This document shows, piece after piece, positions 7,542 to 64,000 of a stretch of DNA of 64,000 nt. Made by a program: the position numbers and the translations under genes. Below the pieces are notes generated by a model. The model made no database searches. It was not told where the DNA came from and was given only the letters and a program-made list of their open reading frames with translations. Each line of letters opens with the position of its first letter. Position 1 is the stretch's first letter. This stretch comes from a virus (lineage: Duplodnaviria > Caudoviricetes). The stretch is from positions 5,329 to 69,328 of the IMG/VR virus record IMGVR_UViG_3300028624_000009. One strand, written 5' to 3'.

Positions 7542-7609
7542 ATACATATTTTTTTTTAGTATTAACGAAAACCCATATATAGTAGATAATATAGAGAAGA
7601 GTATAAGGG

Positions 7610-8410: not shown

Positions 8411-8753
8411 GAGAACCGTCAGAACTCTGCACATGCTCGAAAAAGACAAAAAATCTCCAATAGATCGCATAGTAATCCTGAACAAAGAGATCGCTCAGGT
8501 AGCTTATGAGTTGCTTCAATGTAGGATATTTCCAGGCGAGGCAAAAGCGCACATGGCAAACGCCAAGTTGGAGCTTGGAGATGCATTAACCCAGCTTAAT
8601 ATGTTGTGCCTAGATATGGAATTGGTGCCAGAGGAGATCCTGAAATTGGGTATCCAGCATACCTATGAAAGATTCCAGGATTTCGCAGAGAGGGGATGGG
8701 ATAAGAGACAAATGGAGACGCTTTCATGCAGAAGCAAAGAACTGAATGCATAG
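8403..8753 (+). CDS. MazG-like NTP pyrophosphohydrolase
   Basis: All-helical; KEIAQV...ELGDAL motif; adjacent to thyA. Confidence 0.55.
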   Translation: MLERTVRTLHMLEKDKKSPIDRIVILNKEIAQVAYELLQCRIFPGEAKAHMANAKLELGDALTQLNMLCLDMELVPEEILKLGIQHTYERFQDFAERGWDKRQMETLSCRSKELNA

Positions 8754-13683: not shown

Positions 13684-15188
13684 AAAAGATATTGGGGTTT
13701 ATATTCCTATTGCTGTTTGTGTCTAGCGTGGCCGGTACATATCCAGCTCCCTACCAATTTGCAGGTCCCGTGACTCCGCCCATATCAATGCCGGAGCTTC
13801 AGTCGATCAATATATCGCGCAACTTTGTGTTTCCAGAACCAAAGTTTGTCGAGCTTGAGCTTGATCCGAATGCATTCCAACTTGAAAATATAAGTGAAGA
13901 TGACATCATAGAAACCGAAAATGAGCCAGTTGCTGGAACGGATGTTTTAATTGAAAATGATAGCGAAATATTCACACCAGCTGCCGATGAGTTGGTCGAA
14001 TCATCTGAAGATATCCAGTATTCTGCCGATGTCATTGTCTATCAGCAAGGCCAAAACATCATAGCCGAAACCGCAGATGGCAAAGAACTAGCAACGGCTC
14101 CAATATCATCGGATGTGTCCGGTCTGTTCAAGATTGCTGTAGATGCCGTGCCGGACGGTGGTAGCCTGCATATTGGCTCCGGCAAGTATAGCGTATCTGC
14201 ACCTTATGAGTTTGCACTGAATCCGGATGGCACAAATATCTTCTATAATGCTATTCAGGTTCTCGACAAGGACATGCATATCAGCGGCGATGGGGTGGAT
14301 GAGACCATCATCCAGCTACTTCCAGGCCAACGCAGCCCTGCAAGGCATGTGGCCATGGTCCTCATCCGGGGCACCAGGGGATTTGATCCTGGATATGACG
14401 AGTTCTCTGTCGCCGATCTGACTTTGGACGGCAATAGAGGCAGTCAGACAGATGGTCAACCTCATGACGGCGAAGGCCTGATCCTGGTAGGGTCTGAGAG
14501 GACGGATGGTTATTATTACAATCTTCATCTGGAGAATTCCTGGGGGTCGGGCATCTATCTGGGTAACAATGGCGCAGGCAACAGCGGGACCAATGAGACG
14601 GTCTCCCATGTCGTGGCTCGGAACTGCGGTGCAGAAGGGATCATCCTCGATACCTGCCACCATAGCAGAGTGATTGATTGCGAAGGCTGGCAGTGTCGCG
14701 AAGGTGTCGTCCTCTACGGCAACGATGATTGGAAAAGCCGGACCCCGGACGACGTGAGCGCATCCCGATTCAAGACCGATAGTCAGGTCACGGTCTGGCA
14801 GGTCAATGATTTTAAACTCAGTGAAATTGACATGGACTGCACAAATACCATCGGATCGTATGGCCTGATGATTCGCGACGGAACCGGAACGGTCGAGAAC
14901 TCTGTTCTGGTTAGCAGCAAGGATCGAGCAGATTCTACTGGCGGGGCGACCTACATCATTGAAGGGTCAGACGTCAAGATCATCGATAGCCGACTGGAAG
15001 GCTATTTCGGCGTCCACGCGATAGGCCGTGCTAAGGTTGAGGTCACGAACTGCCGGATAGATGCTCCTGGTGGATGTTTCTGCACAACCGACCCAGCTCC
15101 TGTTCAAAGCACCATAATCGTGAAAAACTGTACTTGCTCCGGGCTCAGGGCCGCGATGCAAACAGGTGCCATGCTGATAGAAGGATAA
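13671..15188 (+). CDS. Secreted right-handed beta-helix (pectin-lyase-like) protein
   Basis: Signal peptide MKKILGFIFLLLFVSSVAG; GxGxDxTII, LTLDGN, PbH1-like repeats. Confidence 0.8.
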   Translation: MHNMKKILGFIFLLLFVSSVAGTYPAPYQFAGPVTPPISMPELQSINISRNFVFPEPKFVELELDPNAFQLENISEDDIIETENEPVAGTDVLIENDSEIFTPAADELVESSEDIQYSADVIVYQQGQNIIAETADGKELATAPISSDVSGLFKIAVDAVPDGGSLHIGSGKYSVSAPYEFALNPDGTNIFYNAIQVLDKDMHISGDGVDETIIQLLPGQRSPARHVAMVLIRGTRGFDPGYDEFSVADLTLDGNRGSQTDGQPHDGEGLILVGSERTDGYYYNLHLENSWGSGIYLGNNGAGNSGTNETVSHVVARNCGAEGIILDTCHHSRVIDCEGWQCREGVVLYGNDDWKSRTPDDVSASRFKTDSQVTVWQVNDFKLSEIDMDCTNTIGSYGLMIRDGTGTVENSVLVSSKDRADSTGGATYIIEGSDVKIIDSRLEGYFGVHAIGRAKVEVTNCRIDAPGGCFCTTDPAPVQSTIIVKNCTCSGLRAAMQTGAMLIEG

Positions 15189-17926: not shown

Positions 17927-18505
17927 TCACGAATTGAACGGCTGAACCTTGCAGGTCACCGTCGCGCCATCATCAGTCTTAGTTGCTACGATCTTGATGT
18001 AATCAGGGATATTAGAGATTACAAAGAAGCCGCTGATATCGGTAGTGATTTCGCTTGCTGCCAGACCAGTTGCCTTATCAAGCAACGGCACGAACGTCAG
18101 CCCGCTGCCCATCGCGCCCAGAACGCTGATCGTCCAAGTCTTGTCGTTCGCGTCACTGACAAAATGCACCAGCAACGAATTAAATCCTCGGCAATCGATT
18201 TCTGCGCTAGTGGCCGTATCTGTAATCGCACTGTGAGCGGTTGTTATTGCGCCCTTAGTCATCTTGTCTACGTCTATTGAATCTAACGAAGAATCGAGTG
18301 GCAGCAACTTTATACCAGTTGTCCGAAGCAACGTTTCAACATCTGCGAGATCAGCTTTCATGAGGGCGATGTCAGCCGACATACTGGCAAGATCACCCGA
18401 GGCAGTATCGGGAGTGGCATCGGCCAGGGCTTTGACGGCGGTCTTGATATCTCCGGCGGTGGCTTCGGTCGCCAAATTCACAGGATGAATTACAACTCGG
18501 ACCAT
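17927..18505 (-). CDS. Putative virion fibre/spike-type protein, paralogous in part to 47790..48806
   Basis: Shared ATEATxGDIKTA, PDTAxGDLA and ADIALMxADLA motifs; beta-rich C-terminus. Confidence 0.55.
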   Translation of the reverse strand: MVRVVIHPVNLATEATAGDIKTAVKALADATPDTASGDLASMSADIALMKADLADVETLLRTTGIKLLPLDSSLDSIDVDKMTKGAITTAHSAITDTATSAEIDCRGFNSLLVHFVSDANDKTWTISVLGAMGSGLTFVPLLDKATGLAASEITTDISGFFVISNIPDYIKIVATKTDDGATVTCKVQPFNS

Positions 18506-18524: not shown

Positions 18525-18558
18525 TTGATAAATAAAGATTGCTGGAAAAAAAGAAGAA
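18525..18558 (-). promoter_or_regulatory. 34-bp T-tract plus TATA-like promoter block, copy A
   Basis: Exact reverse complement of 47724-47757. Confidence 0.75.
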
Positions 18559-45620: not shown

Positions 45621-47075
45621 ATGAGAGAAGATTTAGTCGATATAATCTCCAGGTATTCCGACGAGTTTGGTGTCACGGTAGAATTTACTGATACCGCCGC
45701 TAAGTTTGTTACGGATGATGGAGAAATTGTCCTTGAGGAAAAGGGCGGGGAAGCGAATCTCAAGAGAGTAGAACCTCTTGATGAAACGGATGATGACCAA
45801 ATAATGCGCTTGTCAAAGATTCGGCGACACTTTTCGGGATATCTCAGAACATCTCTAGAGGCCAATAAGAAGGCCTCCGAACCAGTTGCTGAACCAGAAC
45901 CTCCAAAGAAGAAGGCCGGGCGTCCTCCGAAAACAGAAAAGACAGAATTGCCGACTGGAGAGGAGGAACCTCCGAAACCAAGAAGGGCTCCCAGAGGCAC
46001 GAAGGCCGCCGAAGATGCGGAAAGAGCTAAGAAAGCTCAGAATGACCCACCAGATGCCCCGGTCGAACAGCCTCCTGCTCCCACCGAAGATGAAGAGGAA
46101 GAATTGCCGGATCTTCGGCCTGAGTGTGATAAAACTGGCAAAGTTCTCCCGGAGATATACAAGCTAATGAAACTTCGAGGCAGTAAACAGGGACTTGAAG
46201 TTGTCGAGGAAAACCTCGATCATTTAGTTCTGAGAGGCGAGTTTGGCGATGCCGAGGTTCTTGCCAACGGAGAGATTTTGTCCGAGGTAGCGGGTTATAT
46301 ACGAATCCTTGGCGGGCAGCCTGTCAAAGAGCCTACTTCTCCGGTTGCCAAGACCGCGCCGGCCAAGGTTGCTGCTTCGTCTCCAACAAAGTCGGCCCCT
46401 GTGAAGGAAAGCATCTTTGACCAGATCATTGCTCATTTCGGGCCGGATCTCATGGAGGTCTTTGGAGAGACCGGGACAATGAAGTCGCAGGGAATGGTGG
46501 CGCTGGCCAAACAGTGTGCTGAGGCTGGTAGAAAAGTATATTATTTAGACACGGAAAATAATATATCGCCTCCAGATGTCGAAATGTTGAGAAATCTGGG
46601 AGTAAATTATCATTATACCCCGGTTCTCAAGGAGATTGACGAAATCTTCGACAAGAACATACCAGCAATCAAGGCCGATGTCATTATTGTGGACAGCGTT
46701 GGTATGCCAGTGTTGAGGAAGTTCTCGGCGATGAGCGCCCACGATAGAGGGAGCGCGCTTCTGGACATAATCAAGTGGTTGGGAGTATTGAAGGAGTGGA
46801 CCTATCTCAACAAGTCCATAGCTTTCGTCACAAACCAGCCACAATCAGAGTTTGGCAAGTCCTCGTCCCAGGAAAAAGGCGATCATCGCATGCCATTTGG
46901 GGATAAGAGCAATTTTATTCCAGGAGCACTATTATTGTCCAAAAAGTCATTGGATTCCCCGCAGGGTTCCAAAGCAGCGTTCCAAGTTTTTAGACTTCGA
47001 AGCCATGCCTGGGGAGAAAAGATATTCGAGGTAAATGTGGATAAGAATGGACCCTCGATAAAATTGGTGATATAA
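45621..47075 (+). CDS. RecA/RadB-like ATPase with a long disordered N-terminal half
   Basis: EVFGETGTMKS, YYLDTE, IIVDSV, FVTNQ; KKAGRPPK AT-hook-like motif. Confidence 0.8.
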   Translation: MREDLVDIISRYSDEFGVTVEFTDTAAKFVTDDGEIVLEEKGGEANLKRVEPLDETDDDQIMRLSKIRRHFSGYLRTSLEANKKASEPVAEPEPPKKKAGRPPKTEKTELPTGEEEPPKPRRAPRGTKAAEDAERAKKAQNDPPDAPVEQPPAPTEDEEEELPDLRPECDKTGKVLPEIYKLMKLRGSKQGLEVVEENLDHLVLRGEFGDAEVLANGEILSEVAGYIRILGGQPVKEPTSPVAKTAPAKVAASSPTKSAPVKESIFDQIIAHFGPDLMEVFGETGTMKSQGMVALAKQCAEAGRKVYYLDTENNISPPDVEMLRNLGVNYHYTPVLKEIDEIFDKNIPAIKADVIIVDSVGMPVLRKFSAMSAHDRGSALLDIIKWLGVLKEWTYLNKSIAFVTNQPQSEFGKSSSQEKGDHRMPFGDKSNFIPGALLLSKKSLDSPQGSKAAFQVFRLRSHAWGEKIFEVNVDKNGPSIKLVI

Positions 47076-47480
47076 ATGAAGAAGAAAAACAGCAAAGCCA
47101 GGAAGGTTGCTGCGAAAAAGCAGCCTGCAAAAGTCGAAGGCGCAGAAAAGCGGAATTTTATTCTGCTTAGCTGGGATGGAGATGAGATCGGAAAATACAC
47201 AGGGCGAGCACCTCGTCAGGCCGCATTAAAAGCTGCAAATCGTGGAGTGCGGGACATTATCTTCCGGGAAATAGGAAAAAAGAAGGTAGTCATGCGCAAA
47301 AAAGAGAAGGTCACGTACGTAAAAATCCACAGATTCACCGGATCAATTAAAACCCGCCCGAAGATCAAGAGTGACCCAGAGTGGATGAAAGATCCAGTAT
47401 CCATACCAGTAGTGACCAAAGTATGCAGCGCCTGGATGCCAGCGAAAGAGACCGATTTAGCGGCTTATGTCGGTGACTGA
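47076..47480 (+). CDS. Non-histone chromosomal protein MC1 homolog
   Basis: RNFIL...DGDEIGKYTGRAPRQAALKAANRG..I.FRE.G...KIHRFTG...PEWM. Confidence 0.92.
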   Translation: MKKKNSKARKVAAKKQPAKVEGAEKRNFILLSWDGDEIGKYTGRAPRQAALKAANRGVRDIIFREIGKKKVVMRKKEKVTYVKIHRFTGSIKTRPKIKSDPEWMKDPVSIPVVTKVCSAWMPAKETDLAAYVGD

Positions 47481-47723: not shown

Positions 47724-47757
47724 TTCTTCTTTTTTTCCAGCAATCTTTATTTATCAA
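47724..47757 (+). promoter_or_regulatory. 34-bp T-tract plus TATA-like promoter block, copy B
   Basis: TTCTTCTTTTTTTCCAGCAATCTTTATTTATCAA, identical to the reverse complement of 18525-18558. Confidence 0.75.
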
Positions 47758-47789: not shown

Positions 47790-48806
47790 GTGGTAGAAGT
47801 TACGAGTCACAACATCAACCCACCAACAGAGGACACCCTAGCGGATATCAAAATCCTTATTAATAGCAGAATTCCTCTATTGGTCGACGGCAAGGTCCCG
47901 GTTGATATATCGACGTCCGTCGGTTCTATGAATGTCAATGCATTTCCGACGGCCAACCTTGGGCAGCAACCCGTAGCAAATTCCTTGTCAGTGACGCCTG
48001 CTTCGGATATTGCAGATCCAACCTATATCGGTGACATTCGGTTTGGTGAGGCATTGCCGGTTGGAGACAATGTAATAGGTAAAGTCAAGATCGACCAGGC
48101 CATTCCCGGTACAACTAATCTGGTTAATGTCAATGGCGGGGCCTCGCAGACGGCTGATATCAAGGTCACACTGGATTCCGAAACCATTGCAGTAACTGGT
48201 CCTCTGACAGATGCTCAATTATCTGCGCAGTCGTTGGCAAAAGACAGCTCGTTGACAAACATTCTAAATAAGATCATTGCCGAACCGTCCACCGAAGCCA
48301 AACAAGATCTGATCCTGACCGCCCTCGGGTTGATTGCGACCGAAGCCACAACAGGCGATATCAAGACTGCCACAGAAGCCTTAGCAGCACTAATATCAGC
48401 TGGGGCTCTGGCGGTTTCCCTGACAGAGTTGCCGGACACTGCTGCTGGCGACCTGGCAGACATTAACACCGCTTCTGCAAGTATCGATGGCAAGCTCCCG
48501 GCCATCGGGCAGCAGCTCAAGGCAGCGTCTCTGTCGATTGTACCTGCATCGGACGCGGATGATGTCAAGGTCACCCTAGACTCGGAATCTGTAGCAGTAA
48601 CAGGTCCGCTGACCGACACCGAATTAAGAGCATCCGATATCAAGGTAACGCTTGATTCTGAGTCAGTTGCAGTAACCGGGCCACTCACCAACGCGGAATT
48701 GACTGCGCAGGCATTGGCCACGGAAGCAACTCTCGGTACAATGCAGGCAGACATAGCCCTCATGAGAGCCGATCTTGCAGCTATCTTAGCCATCCTGGAG
48801 AGCTGA
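47790..48806 (+). CDS. Putative fibre-shaft protein with DxKVTLDSExxAVTGPLT repeats
   Basis: Three internal repeats; directly upstream of the Mtd-like gene. Confidence 0.65.
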   Translation: MVEVTSHNINPPTEDTLADIKILINSRIPLLVDGKVPVDISTSVGSMNVNAFPTANLGQQPVANSLSVTPASDIADPTYIGDIRFGEALPVGDNVIGKVKIDQAIPGTTNLVNVNGGASQTADIKVTLDSETIAVTGPLTDAQLSAQSLAKDSSLTNILNKIIAEPSTEAKQDLILTALGLIATEATTGDIKTATEALAALISAGALAVSLTELPDTAAGDLADINTASASIDGKLPAIGQQLKAASLSIVPASDADDVKVTLDSESVAVTGPLTDTELRASDIKVTLDSESVAVTGPLTNAELTAQALATEATLGTMQADIALMRADLAAILAILES

Positions 48807-48808
48807 AC

Positions 48809-49960
48809 ATGGGATTTCTGAATCGCCTTCCAGCCAGGCAGGACGGCTACTACAACCGCAACCGGATGTGGAAGAACAAGGGCAGCGACACGGCGGCCAA
48901 TAGGAGGACCCTGGTCAGCCCCAGCCATATGCTCGTGAACATTGGTGGAGCCGGTGCTCATGCCTACGAGCGGGAAGCCGCCCTGGAGATGGACCTGAAC
49001 GAGTCTTGGGTCTGGGATACTCAGACTCCCACCGACTATACCGTAGCGGCCAACCGTGCAGGCAAGGACTTCTACGTCTATGCACTCCTTCCGAGCAGCG
49101 GGTTCTCTCCTGTACTGGTTCTGAGCGCTGCAACCACCTATCCAGCTGGCTACTCCGCAGCAGACAGCCGCAAGATAGGGGGCTTCCATTGCGAATGCGC
49201 GGATGTTGGCACGATATCCGGCCACCCCCTCACAGGCTACCTGGCAGGAGATATCATCCCTCGGTCTTGCTGGGATCTGCTACATAGATCTGCGGGTGCC
49301 CAGGCGGGGATGGTCTGGGCCGGGAAGACAGATTTTGATAGCCTGACAGGCCCTAAGATATGGGTTGCCATCTACCTGGCCAGCGGCACGGGATCAAGCA
49401 CGGTTTCTGCCAACGGGGCCACGATCTCAGATACACGAGACTGGATGAGTTTCGTGGACGACTTCGCGGCCATAGGCTGCAGGATGCTGGAGGACGACGA
49501 ATTCCAAGCCATCGCCGCCGGATCGAACGAAGAGACGAACATCGCCGGATTAGACGATCCAGTCACTACTGGCGGACATCTCGACACTGCTGGCAGACGG
49601 ATGGTCAGCAACATCGGCTGCGAGGACTGCTGCGGGGTATTGTGGCAGTGGCTCAGGACTCAGAGCTATCGTTTCGATGGGGCGGCGAACCATACACATC
49701 AGGTGGTGGTGTCTGGCGATCCCGAAACGGTGACTTCTAGCAATCCATCTGGCGATGTCGCTCCGGCATTCGCATACTACGATCTCCCCGGAGCGAAGGG
49801 CAGCCTCTACAAGCAAGGGACTTACGGCGATGTGAAGCTGCTCGGCGGCGGCGCTTGGGATAGTGCGTCGTCTTGCGGTTCGCGGGCGCGTTATGCGGCT
49901 AACCATCGCTGGAATACGGGTTCGAATATCGGCGGTCGCTTTGTCGCGGAGCCACACTGA
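48809..49960 (+). CDS. Major-tropism-determinant (Mtd)-like receptor-binding protein with FGE/C-type-lectin fold and DGR-type variable region
   Basis: AGKDFYVY, SRKIGGFH, GCEDCCGVLWQW, LLGGGAW...CGSRAR...RW...NIGGRF. Confidence 0.88.
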   Translation: MGFLNRLPARQDGYYNRNRMWKNKGSDTAANRRTLVSPSHMLVNIGGAGAHAYEREAALEMDLNESWVWDTQTPTDYTVAANRAGKDFYVYALLPSSGFSPVLVLSAATTYPAGYSAADSRKIGGFHCECADVGTISGHPLTGYLAGDIIPRSCWDLLHRSAGAQAGMVWAGKTDFDSLTGPKIWVAIYLASGTGSSTVSANGATISDTRDWMSFVDDFAAIGCRMLEDDEFQAIAAGSNEETNIAGLDDPVTTGGHLDTAGRRMVSNIGCEDCCGVLWQWLRTQSYRFDGAANHTHQVVVSGDPETVTSSNPSGDVAPAFAYYDLPGAKGSLYKQGTYGDVKLLGGGAWDSASSCGSRARYAANHRWNTGSNIGGRFVAEPH

Positions 49961-50084
49961 CGCCAGAACAACTTTAGTGATATGTGGCCTTGCGGTGCTC
50001 CATATGCAAAAATCGTGGCTACCGAGGATGCAGATGGTACGAACTGCACAGTAGAAGTTGTTCCCTTTAACCGATAGAAAAAAC

Positions 50085-50118
50085 TCCCGGCCCGAAGACC
50101 GGGAAAAATATTTTTTTT
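50085..50118. terminator. Hairpin with A/T tracts between convergent genes
   Basis: TCCCGG...CCGGGA flanked by A-runs and a T8 run. Confidence 0.5.
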
Positions 50119-50366
50119 CAGTCTCCTACATATTCTATTGAATCGATGTCCAGTTCCATTAGACTGTCATTTGGTCCAATTAGCACAAGTACCTCCTGGT
50201 TATCTACATATTCTTTAGTTGCTGCATCTTTAGGTTCGATAGGATCACCAAGATCCATGAGTCGGTTGAAATAGACTGACTGATCTCCGTCGAGGGTTTT
50301 CTTATCTCGGACACCTATCTTTTCCTGCCATTTCCAATCATGTAATCTGATATTGGGTCTATCCAT
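50118..50366 (-). CDS. Short protein consisting of the spike N-terminal attachment domain
   Basis: RLxDWKWQEK...LDGDQSVYFNR..LGDP.EP.DAA.K.YV shared with 50403..52532. Confidence 0.75.
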   Translation of the reverse strand: MDRPNIRLHDWKWQEKIGVRDKKTLDGDQSVYFNRLMDLGDPIEPKDAATKEYVDNQEVLVLIGPNDSLMELDIDSIEYVGD

Positions 50367-50402
50367 AATATGTTCACCAGCCTTTATTTTATTTCAATCT
50401 TG

Positions 50403-52532
50403 TCAGGACTCCGAGACAAACGTTAGGAACATGGTCAGGTCAGAGGCATTTCCAATTGTACCTTTGGTAGTAGTAATCTCGATAGTATCGCCTGCGGTAA
50501 TTCTATATCTGGCAGGATCAATATTGATAGTTGTCGATTGCACGACCGATGCTACCTGCAAACCATTTCCTGTTATGACTTTGTTACCGTTTATTGCTAC
50601 GTTTACATACGGCTGTGCACCTGAACTATCCAGGGTGTTAACAATACAACCGACTGCAACCAAATATGCAGGTGGTCCTCTCCATACACTATGCGATTTC
50701 TTGAACGTTTTTATTAGCGTATTGCTGATAGCAGATGCAAATGCGCCTGGAATTAAATAATCAACCTGATTTATCATTTCAGGTACGCCAAGATACAGGC
50801 CTTCGATATCACCTGTTATGGGCGGCCCGGAAATCGTGATAGTGTTGATTGTGACATTTTTCACTGTGCCTATGTACTTGACTCCCGCAACCTGATAACA
50901 TATTGGAGTACCCAGGACTATTGCACCTGCACGGTCTACTAGTGTAGTTATGATCGAAGTAGATGGTGGGGTAGCTAGATATGTACCGTCTTCTTTCCTC
51001 CACCGGGAATTATGCCCTTCCAAACCCGCACCAGTGCAATCTCTGATGAAGTAGTTGCTGCCTTCAGCCATTTGGACATATCCTGTTTTAGAAGCGAAAC
51101 ATCTATCCATTTCAACATATCCACCAGGTGCGACATCCAATAATAATGTCGGGTCCGGTTCTTCGTCATTTGGCTGAAGAGCCAACAGCTCAACACCGAT
51201 TAGATATAGTTTACAGGCAACTGGACTTTTTACTCCTTCCACAATTTCGCCTACCATATATACGCAAGATTTGTGGCCCCATATACGACCGCCATGCATC
51301 GTAACTTTGGCTTCACCAAGAATCCTGAATGCATAAGATCCTTCGAAATCACAGTTATTGAAGAATACGTCACAGGGGCCATCTTCCATATAAGTATTGG
51401 CATCAATGAACGTCGAATACTTGAAATTCGTATTGTGCAAAAATTTGCTGGCACTGATCATAACCCGGATTGCGCTATGAATGATGAGGCCATACTGCAT
51501 TGGTGCTCCGGTGCAATCCATGTAGACGCTGTTCATGGTAACATCATTGACAGTCCACAGGGTAATTCCGGCACGATGACATATAGTATCCGAAATAACG
51601 ATGGAATCCCTGTCTCTGGTCAGATAATCGGGCTGATTACCAACACATTCAATTCCGCTGTTGCAATCTTCAATTAGGCAGTTATTGATAAGCAGACCAC
51701 GAACGGTATCTGTCATGATTGCTGTTTTATAACAATTGGTGGCACGAATATCACTAAACACCAAACCGGCGACAGGGCCACTACCATTATTGCCGCAATA
51801 TACTCCATATCCAAAGCTGTCCTTGATCCAAAGCCTCTGGAACCTGAAATTGCTGGCTATGCTTCCGGTAAGGATGATCCCGGACCCATCGTAGTAATAT
51901 TCTTCTTGCTCGGCTCGGTTGCCATCCAACGTCATGTCAGTAACCATGAACATGGTAGCGCCATCATTCCACCAATGAGCACGATTGATGATCATTACAG
52001 CATGGTGATCTGCGCTATGCTGCCCTGGGGCCATTTTGAGTATGGTTGACCCTACACCAGATCCACAGAAATTGATATTTTTTCCGTCCAAGACGCCAAT
52101 AGCATAGTAGAACGGGTTTGACTGGGTTTCCTCACTATCGCCAGTTAAATAAAATACTTTATTGGCCTCAAGGGTGAAAGTTCCCGGACCGATGAACAGC
52201 TTCCCATTATGCGGGCAACTATCCACAGCCGTATCGAAACAACGAGTATCGTCAACCCCAATAGTACCGGTGTCAAGGATATACCATTTATTATTGACCA
52301 CCTTGATTGTTGTTCCTTCCAAGAAGATAGCCACATCAAAATCTGATATTCCTCCGCCGGTAAAGCTCTCAACATACTTTTTATTGGCAGCATCATATGG
52401 TTCTACAGGGTCGCCTAGATTTGTAATCCGGTTGAAATAGACTGACTGATCCCCGTCAAGGATTTTATTACCATGGAAGCCTGTTTTTTCCTGCCACTTC
52501 CAATCCCGCAATCTGGATTCGGGTCCGCTCAT
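50403..52532 (-). CDS. Spike-like right-handed beta-helix protein
   Basis: DAANKKYV neck motif; GSGVGSTIL, MTLDGN; paralogous to 13671..15188. Confidence 0.8.
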   Translation of the reverse strand: MSGPESRLRDWKWQEKTGFHGNKILDGDQSVYFNRITNLGDPVEPYDAANKKYVESFTGGGISDFDVAIFLEGTTIKVVNNKWYILDTGTIGVDDTRCFDTAVDSCPHNGKLFIGPGTFTLEANKVFYLTGDSEETQSNPFYYAIGVLDGKNINFCGSGVGSTILKMAPGQHSADHHAVMIINRAHWWNDGATMFMVTDMTLDGNRAEQEEYYYDGSGIILTGSIASNFRFQRLWIKDSFGYGVYCGNNGSGPVAGLVFSDIRATNCYKTAIMTDTVRGLLINNCLIEDCNSGIECVGNQPDYLTRDRDSIVISDTICHRAGITLWTVNDVTMNSVYMDCTGAPMQYGLIIHSAIRVMISASKFLHNTNFKYSTFIDANTYMEDGPCDVFFNNCDFEGSYAFRILGEAKVTMHGGRIWGHKSCVYMVGEIVEGVKSPVACKLYLIGVELLALQPNDEEPDPTLLLDVAPGGYVEMDRCFASKTGYVQMAEGSNYFIRDCTGAGLEGHNSRWRKEDGTYLATPPSTSIITTLVDRAGAIVLGTPICYQVAGVKYIGTVKNVTINTITISGPPITGDIEGLYLGVPEMINQVDYLIPGAFASAISNTLIKTFKKSHSVWRGPPAYLVAVGCIVNTLDSSGAQPYVNVAINGNKVITGNGLQVASVVQSTTINIDPARYRITAGDTIEITTTKGTIGNASDLTMFLTFVSES

Positions 52533-52535
52533 GGA

Positions 52536-52931
52536 CTATGCCTCCATCAATTCTATGTACTCATCTTCAGTCCAGATCCCAGGTATGGCTATTATCGAGA
52601 ACGTGGTATCAGGGTCATCAGAGAACATGCTGATAACTGCGATATATATGCCATCGTGGACAGCATATCCCTTGTCCTGGCTTGGATCAATACCATCCAC
52701 CACAGATATATCTCTTCCATTTGAAGATATCTGATAATATAATATGCCCGGCCCGTAGTTGAGGATCGTAATGGCTTTTGCAGGTACTCCCAGACCTGCA
52801 AGTCCATTCTCTCCATTCACAATGTCATATCTTCTGAGACCAGCTTCGCCTATTCCACCGAAGGATTGATGAAACACAGCGAAAGGAACATGCCGATATT
52901 TAAGCATGGCTCCTCCCTCCTTACATTTCAC
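52536..52931 (-). CDS. Small beta-sandwich putative structural protein
   Basis: Beta-strand pattern; lies in the structural cluster. Confidence 0.55.
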   Translation of the reverse strand: MKCKEGGAMLKYRHVPFAVFHQSFGGIGEAGLRRYDIVNGENGLAGLGVPAKAITILNYGPGILYYQISSNGRDISVVDGIDPSQDKGYAVHDGIYIAVISMFSDDPDTTFSIIAIPGIWTEDEYIELMEA

Positions 52932-53994
52932 CGATATAAATCAGATCATTGAGCTGATATTTCTCAATCAGGGCGTTTGCTGCTGCCTGTTCAACATCAG
53001 TTGCATATGGCATGCCCCATTTCTGGTGATCAACAACTGTCATTTTTCTGAGACCATATCTGACTCTCATCCGGAGATTTGGTTTTACTGCGTTCGTGGC
53101 ATGATTGTTTATGATCTCAACCTGGAACTTCTGGCACGCCGGAATATACATTCTCATATCGACATCGGGTGCTCCTGTATCCCCGGAAGGCATTGCCACT
53201 GCATCCATCCTGACATAGTTCATCAGGTCATCTCGGCTGACGAATATATAACAAGCATCGAATGGGTCCGCCCCTCCTTCATCGAGGTTATCCTGAATCT
53301 GGGCGGCATCAACACCAATACCCAGAATAACCGCTACATAACCCGGTGGGACCCTGGTCCAGGCTCCTGACAGAACATGTGACCCCCCGCCAGCAGCCAG
53401 TCCTGGTATCTGCCTGGAAATCTCCTTGACCTCTTCGAACTGCTCTTCAACCGAGGGATTCAAAAGGTCCTGGTGAATCGGAAGATTGCCGATCAGTGCT
53501 CTTTCCGTAAGATTCGCGGTCTCCAGTATCCGGGCCTTGGAAGCATCATCCAGTCTGCTTTCAACCATGCTCAAAGCTGTCTGGGGATCTCGTATTCCCC
53601 ATCTGTAGAGATCGAGCATGTTATAATTTCGAACAACTACATGATATCTTGTAATGATGTTTGGCTCGTTGCCGCCTATACTCCGCTGCCGTATATTTGC
53701 ATATGAGCTGGCTATGGTCTTATTGCTGATTGCCGCAGTGTCATCATACCAAACATCTGCCTGTGCTGCTGAGTACAGTTTCAAGGCCTCGTCAGACTTA
53801 TCGGTAGATACGACAGTTTCAACAGGATAAGTAGCTGGTCTTGTGGAAACCACGTTCCTAATCTCAACCAATCTTTTTCCGAAATTGGTATATTTAGCAA
53901 CTTCCACGCCACTCGTTGGTACATTAACCCGGAATACTTCTGGCAGTACCTCGGTGGGATATCTGGCATATGCCAGGTTTGCGAATGCTGTCAT
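52921..53994 (-). CDS. Putative capsid or structural protein with two beta-rich halves
   Basis: Alternating hydrophobic strands, helical linker, own promoter. Confidence 0.45.
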   Translation of the reverse strand: MTAFANLAYARYPTEVLPEVFRVNVPTSGVEVAKYTNFGKRLVEIRNVVSTRPATYPVETVVSTDKSDEALKLYSAAQADVWYDDTAAISNKTIASSYANIRQRSIGGNEPNIITRYHVVVRNYNMLDLYRWGIRDPQTALSMVESRLDDASKARILETANLTERALIGNLPIHQDLLNPSVEEQFEEVKEISRQIPGLAAGGGSHVLSGAWTRVPPGYVAVILGIGVDAAQIQDNLDEGGADPFDACYIFVSRDDLMNYVRMDAVAMPSGDTGAPDVDMRMYIPACQKFQVEIINNHATNAVKPNLRMRVRYGLRKMTVVDHQKWGMPYATDVEQAAANALIEKYQLNDLIYIGEM

Positions 53995-54122
53995 ACCGAA
54001 TATGTAAGATAGATTAATATAAAAACAAATGCGGAATAAAGTAGTACAATGTTCAATCGGATAAATTTTATTAAATTAGCGTGTTCAACAAGTACATATA
54101 TCAGTAACAAAGTAGTACAATC

Positions 54123-54347
54123 ATGCCTATATTCAGGACAGTTAAAGCAATCCCAAGCGGAGGATCTAAGAGAATAACATTACCGGCTGCATGGACGAAA
54201 CAACATGGCGTGAAAGCAGGCGATGATCTGCAATTGCTGGATCATGGTGTTTTGATAGTGTTCCCGCCGAAAATAAGCAGCAATCTGAATATTGATGATT
54301 TAACAAGAGATATAAGAGCAACGTTATTCAATTTTGTCAAAAAATAA
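54123..54347 (+). CDS. AbrB/MazE/SpoVT-family DNA-binding protein
   Basis: GGSKRITLPAAW....GVKAGDDL. Confidence 0.9.
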   Translation: MPIFRTVKAIPSGGSKRITLPAAWTKQHGVKAGDDLQLLDHGVLIVFPPKISSNLNIDDLTRDIRATLFNFVKK

Positions 54348-54365
54348 AGAGGGAATAAATCCCCT

Positions 54366-55142
54366 CTAATTGCTGCAAGTTGGGTCTTCATCCGGGCTGA
54401 TGTAATAAACCAGCATTGCGGCGTCACCGTAGTATGCAGAATCAATGGCGCTCGACAGCCTGAAATAAACGTCGTCCTTGACGAAATCAGATATCGTGAG
54501 CGGTGTAAACTTGGTCACGGTATGGGTAGCCTTGAAATCATCTATGTTGACTACACATGCGCCAATATCTTTAGCATACTTGATGCCAATGCTTGCGATT
54601 GATATGTCCAGTCCTGGATTGGCCAACGCAAGCCTTACATGGGTCCAAGAATTCATTGTAAGGGCAGGGACGTTCAGGGTTTCAAGCGGAGAAACACATT
54701 CGGCGGTGTTGTCAAGCAGAATCTGGAGATCTCCGGCATTGGTATTAACAGTGGACTTTATCCAAAACTCGATATGAGTATATCCCAACAGAGATATGGG
54801 AGAAGCAATAGCCTCAGATAATATAGCGCCCTCCGATGCACCAGCGGCAATGTCCAACTTTACGGAGCTAGTTCCAACTTTTTTGTCCGCAGAATCTGCC
54901 GAAACGCTGATATTGGCTGGAGCAGTCTCATTCCAGGCATCCTCGCAGTCTTCAAGCACGATGGAATAGTTTGTTTCCAGTGCCATCATTACCGCACCCT
55001 TGCCGTCTGTTGCAGCAGGGGCTCCATCGGTATAGATGTCACGAATTGGTTTTGAACCGACCGGAAGTTTAACCCAGTATCCAGGAGTACCCTGTATTGT
55101 GGATAATCCAACCGATCCGATAGGGAAAAATGCAAATGCCAT
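54366..55142 (-). CDS. Putative structural protein with an inserted carbohydrate-binding-like domain
   Basis: LEDCEDAWNE...GTSSVK...EFWIKS...WTHVRL...IDDF. Confidence 0.6.
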   Translation of the reverse strand: MAFAFFPIGSVGLSTIQGTPGYWVKLPVGSKPIRDIYTDGAPAATDGKGAVMMALETNYSIVLEDCEDAWNETAPANISVSADSADKKVGTSSVKLDIAAGASEGAILSEAIASPISLLGYTHIEFWIKSTVNTNAGDLQILLDNTAECVSPLETLNVPALTMNSWTHVRLALANPGLDISIASIGIKYAKDIGACVVNIDDFKATHTVTKFTPLTISDFVKDDVYFRLSSAIDSAYYGDAAMLVYYISPDEDPTCSN

Positions 55143-55152
55143 TTTTTATCAC

Positions 55153-56352
55153 CTACTGTAGCGTGTATTCGTATCCCCACAATGCGATCTCAAAGCCTCT
55201 GACACCAGCAGCCCAGGCAGGAATAGATACACCATTATCTGTAACCTTCACAGATCCAATGCCCTTCATGAGAGTATATGCTCTGGGTAGTTCAGTGGGG
55301 CCTCCACGTCTGGTATCCGAGACAAGCGAATGCTGAGGCATTATGAACGGATTATCGTTGACCTCACAGTTGAAGATCATCGGATATCTGGAATTGCCGT
55401 TATCAAACTTCACCTGGAACATGTTGGGATGGGGAATTATTCCGCAATGCGTGAACCTGTAGAACTTCTTCTCGGTAGAAACCCACCTAAAGTTCTGGAA
55501 AGGAACCTGCACATACTGGCCGTCACGAACAAGCTCCATCTCCTGATTGGGAGTGGTTGCCTGATTGTTCTTGCTGTACGTGATGATTCTCTTGATCTGG
55601 GGATCATCTGCATTAAGACCCATGTTGAGGCTCGACCACCAATCCATGGTTGCAGGAACTGATCTGTCGATAACCTGCGGTCCAATTACATCAGAGATCT
55701 CAAGATCTCCAAGGACCTCGTACTGTCTGATCTGGTTGTTGGCTGCGGCAGTAGCGACCTCGGCAACAGGGGATGATCTCAGAGCATTCAGCATCTGATC
55801 TTCGCCCTTCGCGAAGGCAATATGGGCTTTGATTTCGATGTCACTTTCGATTGTAGCATCTCCGCCATGCGCGACTGTCGGGAACTCGATCTTGAAGTTG
55901 AGAGTATCAGAAGGTCCTAGCTTTATGGATGTAGTGTTTGCGCCGCCGCCCATGAGCAGGGCCTTGCCGAAGTTGATGCAAGCCAGGCGATCTCTGAACG
56001 GATAGCTGGGATCGTTGGGTCCGTCGCGTAGTGCAGGAGCCATGTGCTCGTTGATGGAAATGTTCTCGCCAATATCGTTTCCACTTATCACGGGAACAAT
56101 CCTCTTGATCGGCACACGTCGTCCTTCACTATTGACGCCGCCCATGACTTCGATGCCCTCTAACTCGGCAACCATATCGGGTGCCGCTTCCCAGGGTTTG
56201 CTATATCTTTCCAGCCCATGCTCCCACACATATGCGGTATCATCCCCGCACTGAATGGACGCTCCGGCTGTAGCACTCGTCTCCGAGAACGGGTACTTAA
56301 AATTCAACGTCATTCGTCCGAAACCTTTTACCATATGTTTCATCCTGGTCAA
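55153..56352 (-). CDS. Candidate major capsid protein (jelly-roll-like)
   Basis: 399 aa, two beta-rich domains, ends IALWGYEY; strong TATA-like promoter. Confidence 0.45.
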   Translation of the reverse strand: MTRMKHMVKGFGRMTLNFKYPFSETSATAGASIQCGDDTAYVWEHGLERYSKPWEAAPDMVAELEGIEVMGGVNSEGRRVPIKRIVPVISGNDIGENISINEHMAPALRDGPNDPSYPFRDRLACINFGKALLMGGGANTTSIKLGPSDTLNFKIEFPTVAHGGDATIESDIEIKAHIAFAKGEDQMLNALRSSPVAEVATAAANNQIRQYEVLGDLEISDVIGPQVIDRSVPATMDWWSSLNMGLNADDPQIKRIITYSKNNQATTPNQEMELVRDGQYVQVPFQNFRWVSTEKKFYRFTHCGIIPHPNMFQVKFDNGNSRYPMIFNCEVNDNPFIMPQHSLVSDTRRGGPTELPRAYTLMKGIGSVKVTDNGVSIPAWAAGVRGFEIALWGYEYTLQ

Positions 56353-56441
56353 TTGACCGATAAATAAAACAAGTTTTTTATATATAAGTGTTTTTTGTCA
56401 TTTTACGAAAGGTATATATTCTAAAAGCCCAATTGCATAAT

Positions 56442-56606
56442 ATGAGAATAACCTTTGAAATACCAGATGATATGGGGCTTGAATTCCATCAACGTTGTAT
56501 TACCAGAAAAAAGAAAATGAGCGTGGAGTTAAGGATCATGGTGGATGCCTGGCTCAGGGCCAACCCGGAAATGCCCAAACAAAAAATGAAACTGGCCCTA
56601 GAGTAG
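56442..56606 (+). CDS. Ribbon-helix-helix protein
   Basis: RITFEIPDD....F...C......MS..LR.MV..WL. Confidence 0.75.
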   Translation: MRITFEIPDDMGLEFHQRCITRKKKMSVELRIMVDAWLRANPEMPKQKMKLALE

Positions 56607-57980
56607 TCGTTGGATAGCGTTCGCTGCTCGTCCGGCCATAACCTTGGCTTGCTGCAAGTCTCCATTGTTGGCGAAATACAACGCGGTCTGTAGCTCACTA
56701 ATACGGAGCCCATTTGCAGCAACTGTTTCATTTGCTCTTTTTATATCTGAAGCGGATATATTTTTACTCCGCAGCAATGCCGTTATTTGATTTATAGCAG
56801 TTTTATCCATGGTAATCAGTCGATTGCTCGGCCTCCTCCCCGTTGCAAAGGAGCTATTGATGCTCTCCCTGCAAATTTGGCATTTGCCACTGCTGACCCA
56901 CTAACTTCGAACCCATGCTCCTTCGCGAGCTGACCAAAGTTCTTAATAGTACCGGTTGCAAGAGCACCCAATATATTCTTCTTATCCTTATCAAGAGCCT
57001 CTTTAATGGACAGTACGTTTTGCTGGAATGCTGGGATATCGGTCGGGCAAACCTTGTACTCGCTCACAATGTCTTCGGATATTTTTCTCCACGCATCCTG
57101 GGTGCCACCTTCTGCCGCCCAGCCCGCCGCTATCGAGGACAATCCGGAAATACCAATCTTCAGGAGAGCTTCGCCCAGGGGTTGACAGAATATTTTTGAA
57201 AAGACATCAACAGCAGTAGGTATCACGCTTGGAGTAATCACATCGCCGAGATCAAGTTTTTTCGGTGATCCGACGGGTCTCTGATATTCATTGATAGCCG
57301 GAAGCTTGTTAACCAGTTCTTCTCCGGCGTTCCTGGCCTGACAATATGAACATGTCTGGCCGATATTTCCCAGAGTTGGTATTGCAAGTATATCATCATC
57401 AGTATATGCATCGGCATCATAATAAATCTCAAACGGCACGAACTTTCGGGTTGCCGGATTTTTTGCCAATTGCAGATAGGTTAATGGTCTTTTATTCGCG
57501 TCAAACGATAATGGTTGCCTATAGTCCTCCAACGCATACTCATCAAGTCCAACTCCTTCGGGAACTTCATAAACCCGAAATGGCCGATTAACCAGGCCAT
57601 ATTTTTCATCCGATATATTTTTAATCCTGAGCGCCATTTCGTATCTCCTGGATCAGTTTTGATATGATTTTTCCCGCGTGCATCGTTTTCTTTGGAGACG
57701 CCGCTATGGAATCTATGAGCTTGGGATATAATGTTTCCATCACGTTAAATATCCTTCCGGCTATTTCAGGATTTTCTTCAACTGGGATGTCCTGTATGAC
57801 GTTATATAGGATTGGTTTTGCAATCGGCCATACATTCATCGATTTTATATATTTTACTGTATTGTCGGACCCTGCAACCATCGATTGCTGAAATGCCGCC
57901 TTAACGTCGGATTCGTCCGGGAATTTTTTGATCACGCTGAGATGTGTCTCGATGGCAAGATCCAAATCAGCAAGACTCAT
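56598..57980 (-). CDS. Three hypothetical proteins (56598-56810, 56816-57637 with CxxC and an amphipathic segment, 57621-57980)
   Basis: Co-oriented operon. Confidence 0.65.
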
Positions 57981-59176
57981 TGCACTGCACCCGCCAGCTT
58001 TTTCACAGATTCACTTGAACTTTTTACATCCTTTGCCTCGCGACCTGAAAACAGCTCCTTACCGACGGCAACTGCAAGTGTTTTGATCAGCTCTTGCTGG
58101 GACTGGGCCTGGGCTTGTTTTGCTTTCGATGCTTCAATCTGGGCTTCTGCAATCTTGTCTTCCCGTTCTCTGGCCAATCTCAATTGTTCCATCCTGTATT
58201 CATGATCATTTGCTATTTGCAGATCGGTAGAATCTCCCACATGAAGGTTGGCCCCGGCATCCTTTGCTTGCTTTATAATATCATTAATATTCATCTGGAA
58301 CCTACTGTTTTGCTGTAATTGGGCTTCCATAGATTTTACTTTTGTCTCCAGTGCCTGATTCTGGATATCAAGGTTTTTCTGGGTGAGTTCGAGGATTTTG
58401 GTTTCCAATGCACCGGAACTATCCCCGCCACTCTTTTTAGCCTCAACAAGCTCTTTGATCATTGCTCGGTTACTCTCAAGTTCATTCCGCAACATCTCGA
58501 TCTGAAGCTTATATGCCTCAACCATGGGATCTGGACCTGTCTCTCGGACTTCTCCACGGGCTTCTCGAAGCTCCTCAACACGCCTTCGGTGTTGATCTTC
58601 AAGATATTGCTGCTGCTGTCGCCATTCCTCAGACTTCTTCTGCTCCAACTGCATGCTCATCGTCATAAGACCCATCATACCTTGCATCATATCTGCAAAA
58701 GACATGGGTTGCTGCGTTTGTGTCTGAGTTGCAGCCACTGGTTGTGCAGTTGGGGTTCTCTGCATAAAAGCATTTATTAGACTATTGCCGCTGGGCATAC
58801 CCAGTGATTGCCGTATGAAAGCCTCACGTTGTTCCTCGGGAAGAGCACTCGCAATCTCGCGAATATCTGCTGCCGTAAATCCTGCGGGCAGTGAGCGAAA
58901 TCCCTGGTTTGTTGGTGGAGTTGTTTTGCTTTTCATGTCAGCATATTCTTCTTCAGCTTCTCTTTTTGCTTCTAGGGCGGCCTTTTTAGCATTTGTTGCG
59001 GCGGCTTTTAATAAATCAGTTTTTGCAGATTGCGTTAAAATAGCATTGGCCTCTTTCAGCAATCTTGCTGTTTCATTATCATCTGTCTGCACGTCAATCT
59101 TAGAAGCATCATTGGCCTGTCTCACCGATTCAGTAGCTATTTCATCGGAAGATGGCCTACCTGGTTTCTTTGCCAT
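57977..59176 (-). CDS. Long coiled-coil, Met/Gln-rich protein
   Basis: Heptad repeats; MMQGMMGLMTMSMQ. Confidence 0.75.
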   Translation of the reverse strand: MAKKPGRPSSDEIATESVRQANDASKIDVQTDDNETARLLKEANAILTQSAKTDLLKAAATNAKKAALEAKREAEEEYADMKSKTTPPTNQGFRSLPAGFTAADIREIASALPEEQREAFIRQSLGMPSGNSLINAFMQRTPTAQPVAATQTQTQQPMSFADMMQGMMGLMTMSMQLEQKKSEEWRQQQQYLEDQHRRRVEELREARGEVRETGPDPMVEAYKLQIEMLRNELESNRAMIKELVEAKKSGGDSSGALETKILELTQKNLDIQNQALETKVKSMEAQLQQNSRFQMNINDIIKQAKDAGANLHVGDSTDLQIANDHEYRMEQLRLAREREDKIAEAQIEASKAKQAQAQSQQELIKTLAVAVGKELFSGREAKDVKSSSESVKKLAGAVQ

Positions 59177-59233
59177 GCTAAACTACGCGTGTGGAAAAGT
59201 ATATAAATCATTTGTTGCTAGTTTACGCGTATA

Positions 59234-60303
59234 ATGTGGGCTAATGTAGACCGCCGATCGAATACGCTAATGTTAAGAGGCAGCGCCCCGGCTGAACTAC
59301 TGGATGATCTTTTTGAGGCTTCTGAGTTCGCAGCAAGACTCCGACTAAGCAAAAAAGACGGTGAGTGGGCTTACATATCATTCTGTGTCAAGTTCACAAC
59401 GGAGGAGCTATTGAAACTGAAAAGACAGATGGAGGAGCCGGATGCCACAGCATGAGATACATTACAACATAGACGATATTCTTATCGGCAGAAAATTTCC
59501 ACATGTTCATCAAATGATGGACATAATGAGCAAAGAGGGGCCTAACCACAGAAGGTTTTTTCACGACGACAATGTTGTGGACGATATGCTAATAGCGACC
59601 GGAGATTTCGCGGCTGCTTGGTCCGCCAGGTATCATCTGATTGCTGATCGTATTATCCGAGATGGAGAAGCCCCGCAAGAACTGCCTGGTAATGTAAGGC
59701 AGGAGGCCATCATTGCCGAACTACTGGATCTGATGGCAAGAGGCGAAGTAGAACTGGTGGTATTTCCGGATTCCATGCTGGCCAGGCTCATAAGCTCGAT
59801 CAACAATGGAACTGCTATCCTGGTCGAACCCGAAGCATTGCCGCCCCTTCGAAAGAATTATTATATAAAAAGGTGAAGGTGATCGTATGACAGAAGCCGT
59901 AGACTCTGGTGTAGCTAATACACCTGAACAGAAAGAAGAAAAGCCCTGCGTGCAATGCCTGGTCCCAGAGATCATGACCGCCTGGAACTCGGCTAGGGGG
60001 GCTTGTGAGTTCGTCCCTGACGAAAAGGGCCGCAATGAGTGCCGCAAAGAAATGGAGGAAATTGCGAAGGACGTTAAGTCCATAAAGAAGGGCTCTGAAG
60101 TTATATACAAGGCAATAAAATCGTCCAGTAATCCGTCTGCCTTTATCCAGGCCCAGATAGAGTTTGCTAAGACACATAATGCCGCCAATACAGAAGCCAT
60201 CCTTAAATGGGCAGATGAGATGGAGCAAAGTAGCCAACCAATACCCGAAGATATTGCCAAGATAGTAAAATTTTATCGAATACAGGCAGGTTCGCAGATA
60301 TGA
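59234..60303 (+). CDS. Three hypothetical proteins (59234-59455; His-rich 59442-59876; Cys-containing helical 59887-60303)
   Basis: H..H...VHQMMD...GPNHRRFFHD...H suggests metal binding in the second protein. Confidence 0.65.
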
Positions 60304-63481: not shown

Positions 63482-63586
63482 ATGATGAGCAAAGAAGAAC
63501 TGGAGAAAAAGGCGAAAGAAGCCCAGAAAAACGTTGACAAGATGTTCATGAAAGCTATTAAAAAGATAGAAGAAGGTGGTAAGTAA
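63482..63586 (+). CDS. 34-aa charged peptide
   Basis: MMSKEELEKKAKEAQKNVDKMF; stop overlaps the next ATG. Confidence 0.45.
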   Translation: MMSKEELEKKAKEAQKNVDKMFMKAIKKIEEGGK

Positions 63587-64000
63587 TGGTTCGACTTGGA
63601 TCATCATCAAAACCCGCAACTGTAAGTATCGGGGGTAGCAGCGGAAAAACCACTACAACCCCGGCCAAAAGTTCCAGTAGCACGTCCTCAACACCAGCAC
63701 CGCAGGCAAAAGCGCCGGCACCAGCTCCAGCTCCAGCATATATAAATCCATATGATAAACCGATATCCCAGACACCTGCCGCTCAGCAGGTCATAAAGCC
63801 TACACCGCCACCGGCGGAGTATGAGTTACCCAGCACACCGCCTCCAGCTCCAGCTCCAGCATATATAAATCCATATGATAAACCGATATCCCAGACACCA
63901 GCTGCTCAGCAGGTCATAAAGCCTACACCGCCACCGGCGGAGTACCGTTTAGAACCCCCAGTTGTTAACATCTACAACCCAGCGACGGGATTGCTCGAAG
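63586..64000 (+). CDS. Pro/Ser/Thr-rich ORF, 3'-truncated; probable N-terminus of the giant protein at the window start
   Basis: Open to the window end; PAEY motifs resemble those at bases 3-100. Confidence 0.7.
   Translation, partial: MVRLGSSSKPATVSIGGSSGKTTTTPAKSSSSTSSTPAPQAKAPAPAPAPAYINPYDKPISQTPAAQQVIKPTPPPAEYELPSTPPPAPAPAYINPYDKPISQTPAAQQVIKPTPPPAEYRLEPPVVNIYNPATGLLE
63721..63944 (+). repeat. ~101-bp direct repeat, period 123
   Basis: PAPAPAYINPYDKPISQTPAAQQVIKPTPPPAEY twice. Confidence 0.9.

Follow-up and report, generated by a model that had tools for sequence, protein, structure and literature searches.

A probable particle-building gene module in an undescribed lineage of large archaeal viruses for which no packaging motor was found

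Known viruses of bacteria and archaea with jelly-roll shells have genomes of about 10-20 kb, and most of them pump their DNA with an FtsK-type motor. The genomes of Bamfordvirae of bacteria and archaea other than Chaacviridae are of 10-20 kb, and that of SPV1 is circular and ∼20 kb long. Jelly-roll viruses that lack a motor are on record, namely FLiP, SPV1, and a metagenomic group, and some members of the Bamfordvirae are also without the FtsK/HerA-type ATPase (PMC8812541). Among the viruses of ANME-1 archaea, 'Chaacviridae' (10-11 kb) have archaeal capsid proteins that were recognizable by AlphaFold2 only. Here we analyze 64,000 nucleotides (the window) comprising bases 5,329-69,328 of the 69,328-bp virus record IMGVR_UViG_3300028624_000009. 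The genes between window positions 47,790 and 59,176 (47.8-59.2 kb), which we label A to J, probably form a module that builds the particle of a large archaeal virus without head-tail architecture, one of an undescribed lineage with genomes of 61-77 kb. An earlier note on this DNA had suggested a new group of tailless viruses. The gene content and its conservation, the fold of protein E, the lack of hallmark genes and of further P-loop proteins, and the occurrence in RNA libraries are observations, whereas the fold of protein G, the roles of E, D, F, J, and H, a tailless icosahedral shape, the route of packaging, and the host are put forward below as proposals.

In its working the lineage would most resemble SPV1 (Portogloboviridae) and the motor-less double jelly-roll viruses, from which it differs in a genome three to seven times larger, in two-domain candidate shell proteins, and in having its own chromatin protein. 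SPV1 (PDB 6oj0) has single jelly-roll proteins of ∼180 aa and an inner membrane, whereas the present genome measures 69 kb, its candidate shell proteins have 357 and 393 aa, and the module showed no membrane proteins. SPV1 and this virus have no sequence similarity. The SPV1-like combination of a missing packaging ATPase and a DNA-binding condenser is seen here in that no motor gene was found and a gene for the chromatin protein MC1 lies beside the module; MC1 itself would be part of the particle. The Bamfordvirae (PRD1, PM2, STIV, and the ANME-1 'Chaacviridae' and 'Ixchelviridae') mostly have an FtsK/HerA-type (A32-like) packaging ATPase, whereas family searches and a P-loop scan detected none in the present 61-77-kb genomes. 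We found no description of the lineage in the literature, including the text of PMC9796341 and PMC9723712, whose supplementary tables, like those of the ANME-1 paper, may list such contigs.

The record belongs to the IMG/VR class with direct terminal repeats (66 bp) and is rated complete by CheckV. Outside the module the genome encodes a family-B DNA polymerase, a primase-polymerase, an XPD-like helicase, a PolB-type exonuclease, a DNA methylase, nucleases, a radical-SAM protein, and MC1; no tRNA genes were found in a search of the DNA. Four relatives were compared with it, G001 (77.2 kb), G002 (70.3 kb), G003 (75.9 kb), and G004 (60.7 kb); of the five records, three have terminal repeats and four are rated complete. 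When 60 window proteins were compared with three related loci by tblastn, the gene order J-I-H-G-F-E-D proved to be kept in all three, and over the four relatives of 61-77 kb the core of the module is syntenic. In G001, the most distant genome compared, G is the most conserved module protein (76% identity); the values for the others lie at 44-60% (H 60%, E 58%, D 57%, F 47% in two tandem copies, J 46%, and I 44%). In all relatives the module is flanked by the genes for MC1 and a 484-aa protein. G001 has not kept A, B, or the body of C, of which, as of an 82-aa ORF described below, only the first 56-71 residues are conserved there, and the spike and fiber genes at 47,790-52,532 are swapped among the relatives.

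The earlier note recognized no Caudoviricetes hallmark, no A32/FtsK ATPase, and no integrase, and six-frame family searches of the five records (E ≤ 1), which detected such families in control genomes, bear this out. None of the five records matched Terminase_6N, TerL_ATPase, Phage_capsid, FtsK_SpoIIIE, Phage_integrase, or PRD1 P3_C. Pox_A32 gave a single 11.4-bit match to the P-loop of a RecA-like ORF in G001, far under the cutoff, and none in this genome. Phage_portal, the one portal family searched, gave no match over its cutoff of 39.1 bits in any record; its only match (15.8 bits) was again in G001. A Walker-A scan of all frames of at least 60 aa in three complete genomes returned as credible only the XPD-like helicase and a RecA/Sak4-like ORF (the 484-aa protein and its orthologues) and thus no terminase candidate, although a terminase too divergent for these searches is conceivable. 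All ORFs of at least 350 aa in this genome are otherwise assigned except E, G, and J, so that there is no other portal- or terminase-sized unknown. The 5.3 kb of the record beyond the window lie in the middle of a single giant ORF of 3,648 aa, which starts at window position 63,586, runs across the 66-bp repeat, and ends at window position 5,270; therefore no hallmark gene is hidden there.

The giant ORF (window 63586-64000, L001 1-5328, and window 3-5270) has a Pro-rich, repetitive N terminus and PEGA domains near its C terminus. No Pfam family was matched in its first ∼1,800 aa. Its counterpart in G001 is a 2,866-aa frame, in which the 15.8-bit Phage_portal match falls.

The earlier note drew attention to two β-rich ORFs of 350-400 aa, and both, E and G, are indeed β-rich in AlphaFold2 models. 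E (52921-53994, minus strand, 357 aa) had 22 homologues in our search, and the model built from 22 sequences reached a pLDDT of 84.9 and a pTM of 0.84. It consists of two jelly-roll-type β-sandwiches (residues 1-124 and 185-318) joined by a helical linker and followed by C-terminal helices. On this model E can confidently be called a two-sandwich protein, with the HK97 fold excluded. The best structural match was to 8ic8_A, an enzyme of the DUF2961/GH172 type (score 9.3 over 116 aa), followed by Ena pilus subunits (8.8 and 8.3), the capsid proteins of SPV1 (8.5 over 140 aa) and HHIV-2 (8.2 over 117 aa), 7v1v_B (8.2), XepA (8.0-8.4), STIV A223 (7.7), the PR772 penton protein (6.8), and PRD1 P5 (6.6). 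The DUF2961/GH172 double jelly-roll proteins (PDB 7v1v and 8ic8) are cellular enzymes, of which one domain aligns with E at 13-14% identity. Foldseek searches of PDB and BFVD with E returned many matches at E < 1e-3 but with TM-scores of at most 0.26 and root mean square deviations of >9 Å, and these were set aside as generic two-sandwich proteins. We propose that E is a second, less abundant shell or vertex protein. The start of D (52536-52931, minus strand, 131 aa) overlaps the stop codon of E; D is 57-74% identical in relatives and stands at the same position in them. D is of penton size, and its position would fit a single jelly-roll penton protein.

G (55153-56352, minus strand) is 399 aa long if read from a TTG codon; in the relatives and the Atlas record the start is the ATG at 56334, which gives 393 aa. 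The initial search found 12 homologues of G, and a G profile picked out 58 of 1.84 billion representative proteins; distant members of the family (330-350 aa) match mainly the C-terminal half. The AlphaFold2 model of G from 13 close sequences is poor (pLDDT 41), with only residues ∼10-200 reaching 60-70. The modeled N-terminal domain matches jelly-roll proteins, namely SPV1 (7.8), the D13-like scaffold of Orf virus (7.8), satellite panicum mosaic virus (7.4), the enzyme PHM (7.2-7.5), HHIV-2 (6.8), PBCV-1 (6.3-6.4), and PRD1 P3 (5.6). Residues 208-399 are modeled too poorly for any fold call, including HK97, for which the Phage_capsid searches above were negative. A language-model look-up put G near viral clusters, two of them partly with PRD1 P3_N/P3_C (0.89; 11-19% of members), which we take as a lead only, and a Foldseek search of BFVD with the poor model gave weak matches to jelly-roll capsid proteins and to others, on which we do not rely. 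As modeled, G probably has a jelly-roll-like N-terminal domain and a β-rich C-terminal half, the double jelly roll being a lead, and it is our candidate for the major capsid protein. The claim of the earlier note that E and G are jelly-roll capsid proteins thus stands as regards the two jelly-roll-type sandwiches of E and the jelly-roll-like N terminus of G, whereas the double jelly roll and the capsid role are matters of proposal.

Upstream of both genes lies an A/T-rich TATA-like box, TTATATATA at G and TTTATATTAA at E. Divergent from E is a gene for an AbrB/MazE-type DNA-binding protein of 74 aa (54123-54347, plus strand; PF04014, E = 1.4e-6, 28.5 bits, over the cutoff), which is kept in relatives. 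A 72-aa gene (56388-56606, plus strand) diverges from G and is likewise kept in relatives, with no family match. Of the promoter and divergent regulator that had been ascribed to each gene, the boxes are therefore found at both and the regulator at E, whereas the gene at G matches no family.

F (54366-55142, minus strand, 258 aa), which lies on the same RNA contig as G, had 166 homologues. Pfam Gp80 (podophage GP4 fibre I) or SU10_adaptor is found in relatives of its middle 55-78%, along with a weak CBM_4_9 match. Judged by these sequence matches, the middle of F is a mobile sandwich domain common to phage fiber and adaptor proteins, and we propose that F decorates the surface or binds glycans. 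The gene is doubled in tandem in the 77-kb relative G001 (L011 7210-8802).

A distant relative of the pair was found on L022, a 13.4-kb metagenome contig of 38.6% G+C. It carries a G-family gene (352 aa; 1.7e-97 with the G profile), then a 95-aa gene, and then a gene for a 307-aa protein that matches the E profile, in the same order as here. The match of the 307-aa protein has an E-value of 1.5e-7 among the ORFs of the contig, with two stretches matching the same region of the profile; phmmer gave 3.7e-6, and hhalign gave a probability of 64% (E = 6.6e-5, 30% identity over 86 columns). The two genes keep their order as neighbors even in so deeply diverged a contig, which indicates that the families travel together and fits a pair of core particle proteins. 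After the pair, L022 continues (7318-9171) with ORFs for an HNH-type endonuclease-like protein and a membrane protein and with one of 346 aa, which has a very weak likeness to chymotrypsin-type proteases (E ∼0.1) and may be a maturation protease. Scans of viral contigs with P0036, P0070, P0041, and P0046, aimed at the surroundings of distant G relatives, found no relatives. A search of genome contigs with the E alignment matched only two 13-kb contigs, L012 and L013, with E genes 80% identical, which are binned in public metagenome-assembled genomes of Saccharibacteria and Acholeplasmataceae. They are most likely mis-binned viral contigs and thus give no clue to the host.

The virus is transcribed in sludge metatranscriptomes. 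Eight such RNA runs contain 61-90% of the sequence words sampled from 50000-59500. In all four runs examined one contig comprised exactly F and G, extending from 54364/54384 to 56331/56350; it begins just past the F stop codon and ends shortly before the TATA-like box. The depth figures for this contig were 161.5, 58.8, 43.2, and 36.5; the other contigs listed on the 19-kb stretch had at most 27.9, those of E-D 9-17, and the MC1 contig was second in two of the four runs, although depths of this kind do not rank genes. We take the figures as a hint that no transcripts are more abundant than those of G and F, which would suit a major shell protein and its decoration.

MC1 (47076-47480, plus strand; PF05854, E = 2e-19) is encoded at the edge of the module and at the same place in three relatives. 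We propose that it condenses the viral genome. The tentative assignment of the host to the methanogens, also made in the earlier note, rests on MC1 and on the habitat. The adjoining gene (45621-47075, plus strand) encodes the 484-aa protein, which has a conserved N-terminal part and an ATPase domain of the RecA family whose Walker A motif is deviant (GETGTMKS). Its N-terminal ∼265 residues are kept, and the ATPase domain differs in G001 and G002, where the P-loop is canonical (L007 18900-20600 and L011 19500-21068). From the sequences, this exchange looks like a non-orthologous domain swap.

The remaining genes of the module fall into a conserved leftward group and a variable one, and the spikes, fiber-like proteins, and coiled-coil protein noticed earlier are all there, as judged from the family matches of B and C, the repeats of A, and the composition of J. 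J (57977-59176, minus strand, 399 aa), the first gene of the J-I-H unit, is rich in Gln, Glu, and Lys and, by its helix-forming composition in 40-aa blocks, largely helical (coiled-coil-like). It is 46-94% identical in relatives and at the same position in them, and it would be a scaffold, size-determining, or cement protein. I (57621-57980, minus strand, 119 aa) overlaps the stop of J and the start of H and is 44-71% identical in relatives. H (56816-57637, minus strand, 273 aa; 60-93% identical in relatives) has a Gly/Arg-rich C-terminal tail and is a putative minor capsid or core protein; no PDB sequence matched it below an E-value of 0.78. None of E, G, D, F, H, I, and J matched a Pfam or PHROG family.

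C (50403-52532, minus strand) is a 709-aa spike protein with an N-terminal anchor of ∼60 aa, a right-handed β-helix (Beta_helix, E = 7.6e-5, 22.8 bits, under the 25.9-bit cutoff), and a C-terminal domain. Its N terminus matches tail and tail-fiber PHROGs, and only residues 1-61/71 are kept in relatives. The conserved anchor, the first 56-71 residues of C, recurs in an 82-aa ORF (50118-50366, minus strand), which is 64% identical to C over 56 aa; the corresponding DNA repeat (D2) pairs the 82-aa ORF with 52369-52525 over 157 nt at 75%, and in relatives the anchor heads other genes. The ORF may be what is left of a spike gene that was swapped, or it may act as an adaptor on its own. Since the anchor is kept and the spike and fiber parts vary, the anchor seems to be fixed and the receptor-binding parts exchangeable. 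The β-helix of C is 32% identical over 361 aa to a secreted, signal-peptide-bearing β-helix protein in the replication region (13671-15188).

B (48809-49960, plus strand, 383 aa) lies in an island of 56% G+C and is an Mtd-like (C-type-lectin-type) receptor-binding protein (Mtd_2nd, 1.1e-16; phrog_11262 'tail protein', 6.6e-52). It is absent from the same place in relatives, and a similar ORF occurs elsewhere in G002 (68727-69947). B shares the second domain of Mtd with Bordetella phage BPP-1, in which Mtd belongs to a diversity-generating retroelement; here no reverse transcriptase (RVT_1) was found in the genome, and a search of the window for direct repeats found no template repeat and no other copy of B's 3′ end. 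A contig from one RNA library (run X12) has an extra A following window position 50077, in the short stretch that separates B from the 82-aa ORF; this could be a strain difference or an error. A (47790-48806, plus strand) is a fiber-like protein of 338 aa with three repeat units of ∼25 aa (repeat family D3). It has a paralogue at 17927-18505 (minus strand; 37% identity over 71 aa), and an identical 34-bp block precedes both genes in inverted orientation (47724-47757 and 18525-18558; identity verified).

These features are best read as those of a tailless virus with a jelly-roll shell, and they suggest how the particle might be built. The conserved core would consist of three leftward units, J-I-H, G-F, and E-D-C. 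J-I-H would supply a helical scaffold- or cement-like protein and two unknowns, all serving as scaffold, cement, or core proteins. G would tile the shell through its N-terminal jelly roll and second β domain, with F decorating the surface. E-D-C would form a second shell or vertex complex on which C docks by its conserved 60-residue N-terminal anchor, and the right-hand cassette of A, B, C, and the 82-aa anchor ORF would provide exchangeable host-recognition proteins. The genome, condensed by the viral MC1, would be enclosed during assembly rather than pumped into a preformed shell, as in SPV1 and FLiP; packaging without a motor is proposed because no motor gene was found. A more specific version, which we regard as possible and put forward tentatively, is that of a new high-rank group of archaeal viruses with an icosahedral shell built of two proteins that each have two jelly rolls and are unrelated in sequence (G the main component, E always accompanying it), a chromatin-like core wrapped by MC1, no motor, and apparently no viral membrane proteins.

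Several observations weigh against the assignment of the module to a jelly-roll particle. Every structural match of E covers one domain only and none extends across both, its Foldseek TM-scores with double jelly-roll capsid proteins are about 0.15-0.19, and a helical linker of 60 residues such as it has is unusual in proteins of this fold. Most BFVD matches of E are to tail and fiber proteins, and jelly-roll sandwiches are also frequent in fibers, decoration proteins, and sugar-binding modules. The profiles of G and E have no sequence relation to one another or to Pfam, PHROGs, or PDB chains: hhalign probabilities were all <1% for G against E, for the halves of each protein against one another, and for each half of G against each half of E; the G family had no Pfam or PHROG match with 43 diverse members and no Pfam match with 13 close ones; and a PDB sequence search had no match for the profiles A1, A2, and A3 (the G and E families), F, H, or the 484-aa protein. 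A tblastn search of 50,697 GenBank phage records with G and E was also without a match. The link of E to L022 is based on ∼86 aligned columns. Virions of the PRD1, STIV, and SPV1 types have an inner membrane with viral membrane proteins, and a simple hydropathy scan predicted few transmembrane segments in the genome and none in the proteins of the module. Depths of contigs do not rank genes, the RNA libraries may contain DNA, and the depths come from RNA contigs only. Finally, the absence of a motor gene does not show by which route the DNA enters.

Part of this evidence could be read as making E and G surface or accessory proteins, such as adhesins, sugar binders, or fiber or decoration proteins, in which case the capsid would be of another kind, for example a nucleoprotein or an enveloped particle organized by MC1, H, I, and J, or the element would not be a conventional virus. 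The best single-domain matches do include GH172-type enzymes, Ena pili, CUB domains, and PHM, F shares a domain with phage fiber proteins, and the BFVD matches of E lean the same way. We nevertheless consider this unlikely. No module protein is better conserved than G, whereas the neighboring genes that do serve host recognition are swapped among relatives; the G and E families occur together in a very distant lineage; the hydropathy scan revealed in the module no candidate for a small hydrophobic capsid protein like those of spindle-shaped or pleomorphic viruses; and the G-F contig had the highest depth figure in all four RNA libraries, with the caveat on depths given above.

A different objection concerns packaging rather than the shell. 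The 484-aa protein, the only non-helicase P-loop-like protein of the genome, is the only conceivable candidate for ATP-driven packaging, and it could be a new packaging or genome-condensing ATPase. It stands at the border of the virion module beside MC1 in all relatives, and its N-terminal part is kept while the RecA-like engine is exchanged, as if any such engine would do. However, its PHROG match (phrog_97, UvsX-like, 1.5e-7) points to recombination, as do its motifs (Walker A, then ...YLDTE..., and a Walker B of IIVDS), which we take to be those of a RadA/Sak4-like recombination protein of the RecA family, and no Pox_A32 or FtsK_SpoIIIE match was obtained save the 11.4-bit, P-loop-only one in G001. 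A packaging role for this protein is therefore improbable in our view.

It is very improbable that the virus is a head-tailed one (Caudoviricetes) whose terminase, portal, and HK97 proteins have diverged beyond recognition: the PHROG 'tail protein' and 'tail fibre' matches of B and the C N terminus, an order of scaffold-like, capsid-sized, decoration-like, and spike genes that recalls head modules, and the weak portal match in the G001 giant ORF speak for it, but no family match was found in five records and no terminase-capable P-loop protein in three complete genomes, only E (confidently jelly-roll in its model), G (β-rich), and J (helical and of low complexity) are unassigned at portal or terminase size, and no tape-measure, tube, or baseplate family was matched (50 window ORFs against Pfam and 20 against PHROGs).

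If the assignment to a tailless jelly-roll particle is correct, prokaryotic viruses with this type of capsid would span a wider range of sizes, up to a 70-kb lineage that has no motor and carries a chromatin protein of its own. Such a lineage would bear on the origin of large jelly-roll viruses, and motor-free packaging could be tested in it on a long double-stranded genome. In the more specific version given above, the virion would also be larger than any other known jelly-roll virion without a motor, and the lineage would be a living intermediate between simple SPV1- or FLiP-like viruses and the large double jelly-roll viruses. The G and E families are two new marker proteins for viruses that pipelines based on hallmark genes cannot place. 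Because the virus is transcribed in sludge, it may affect methane-cycling archaea in digesters.

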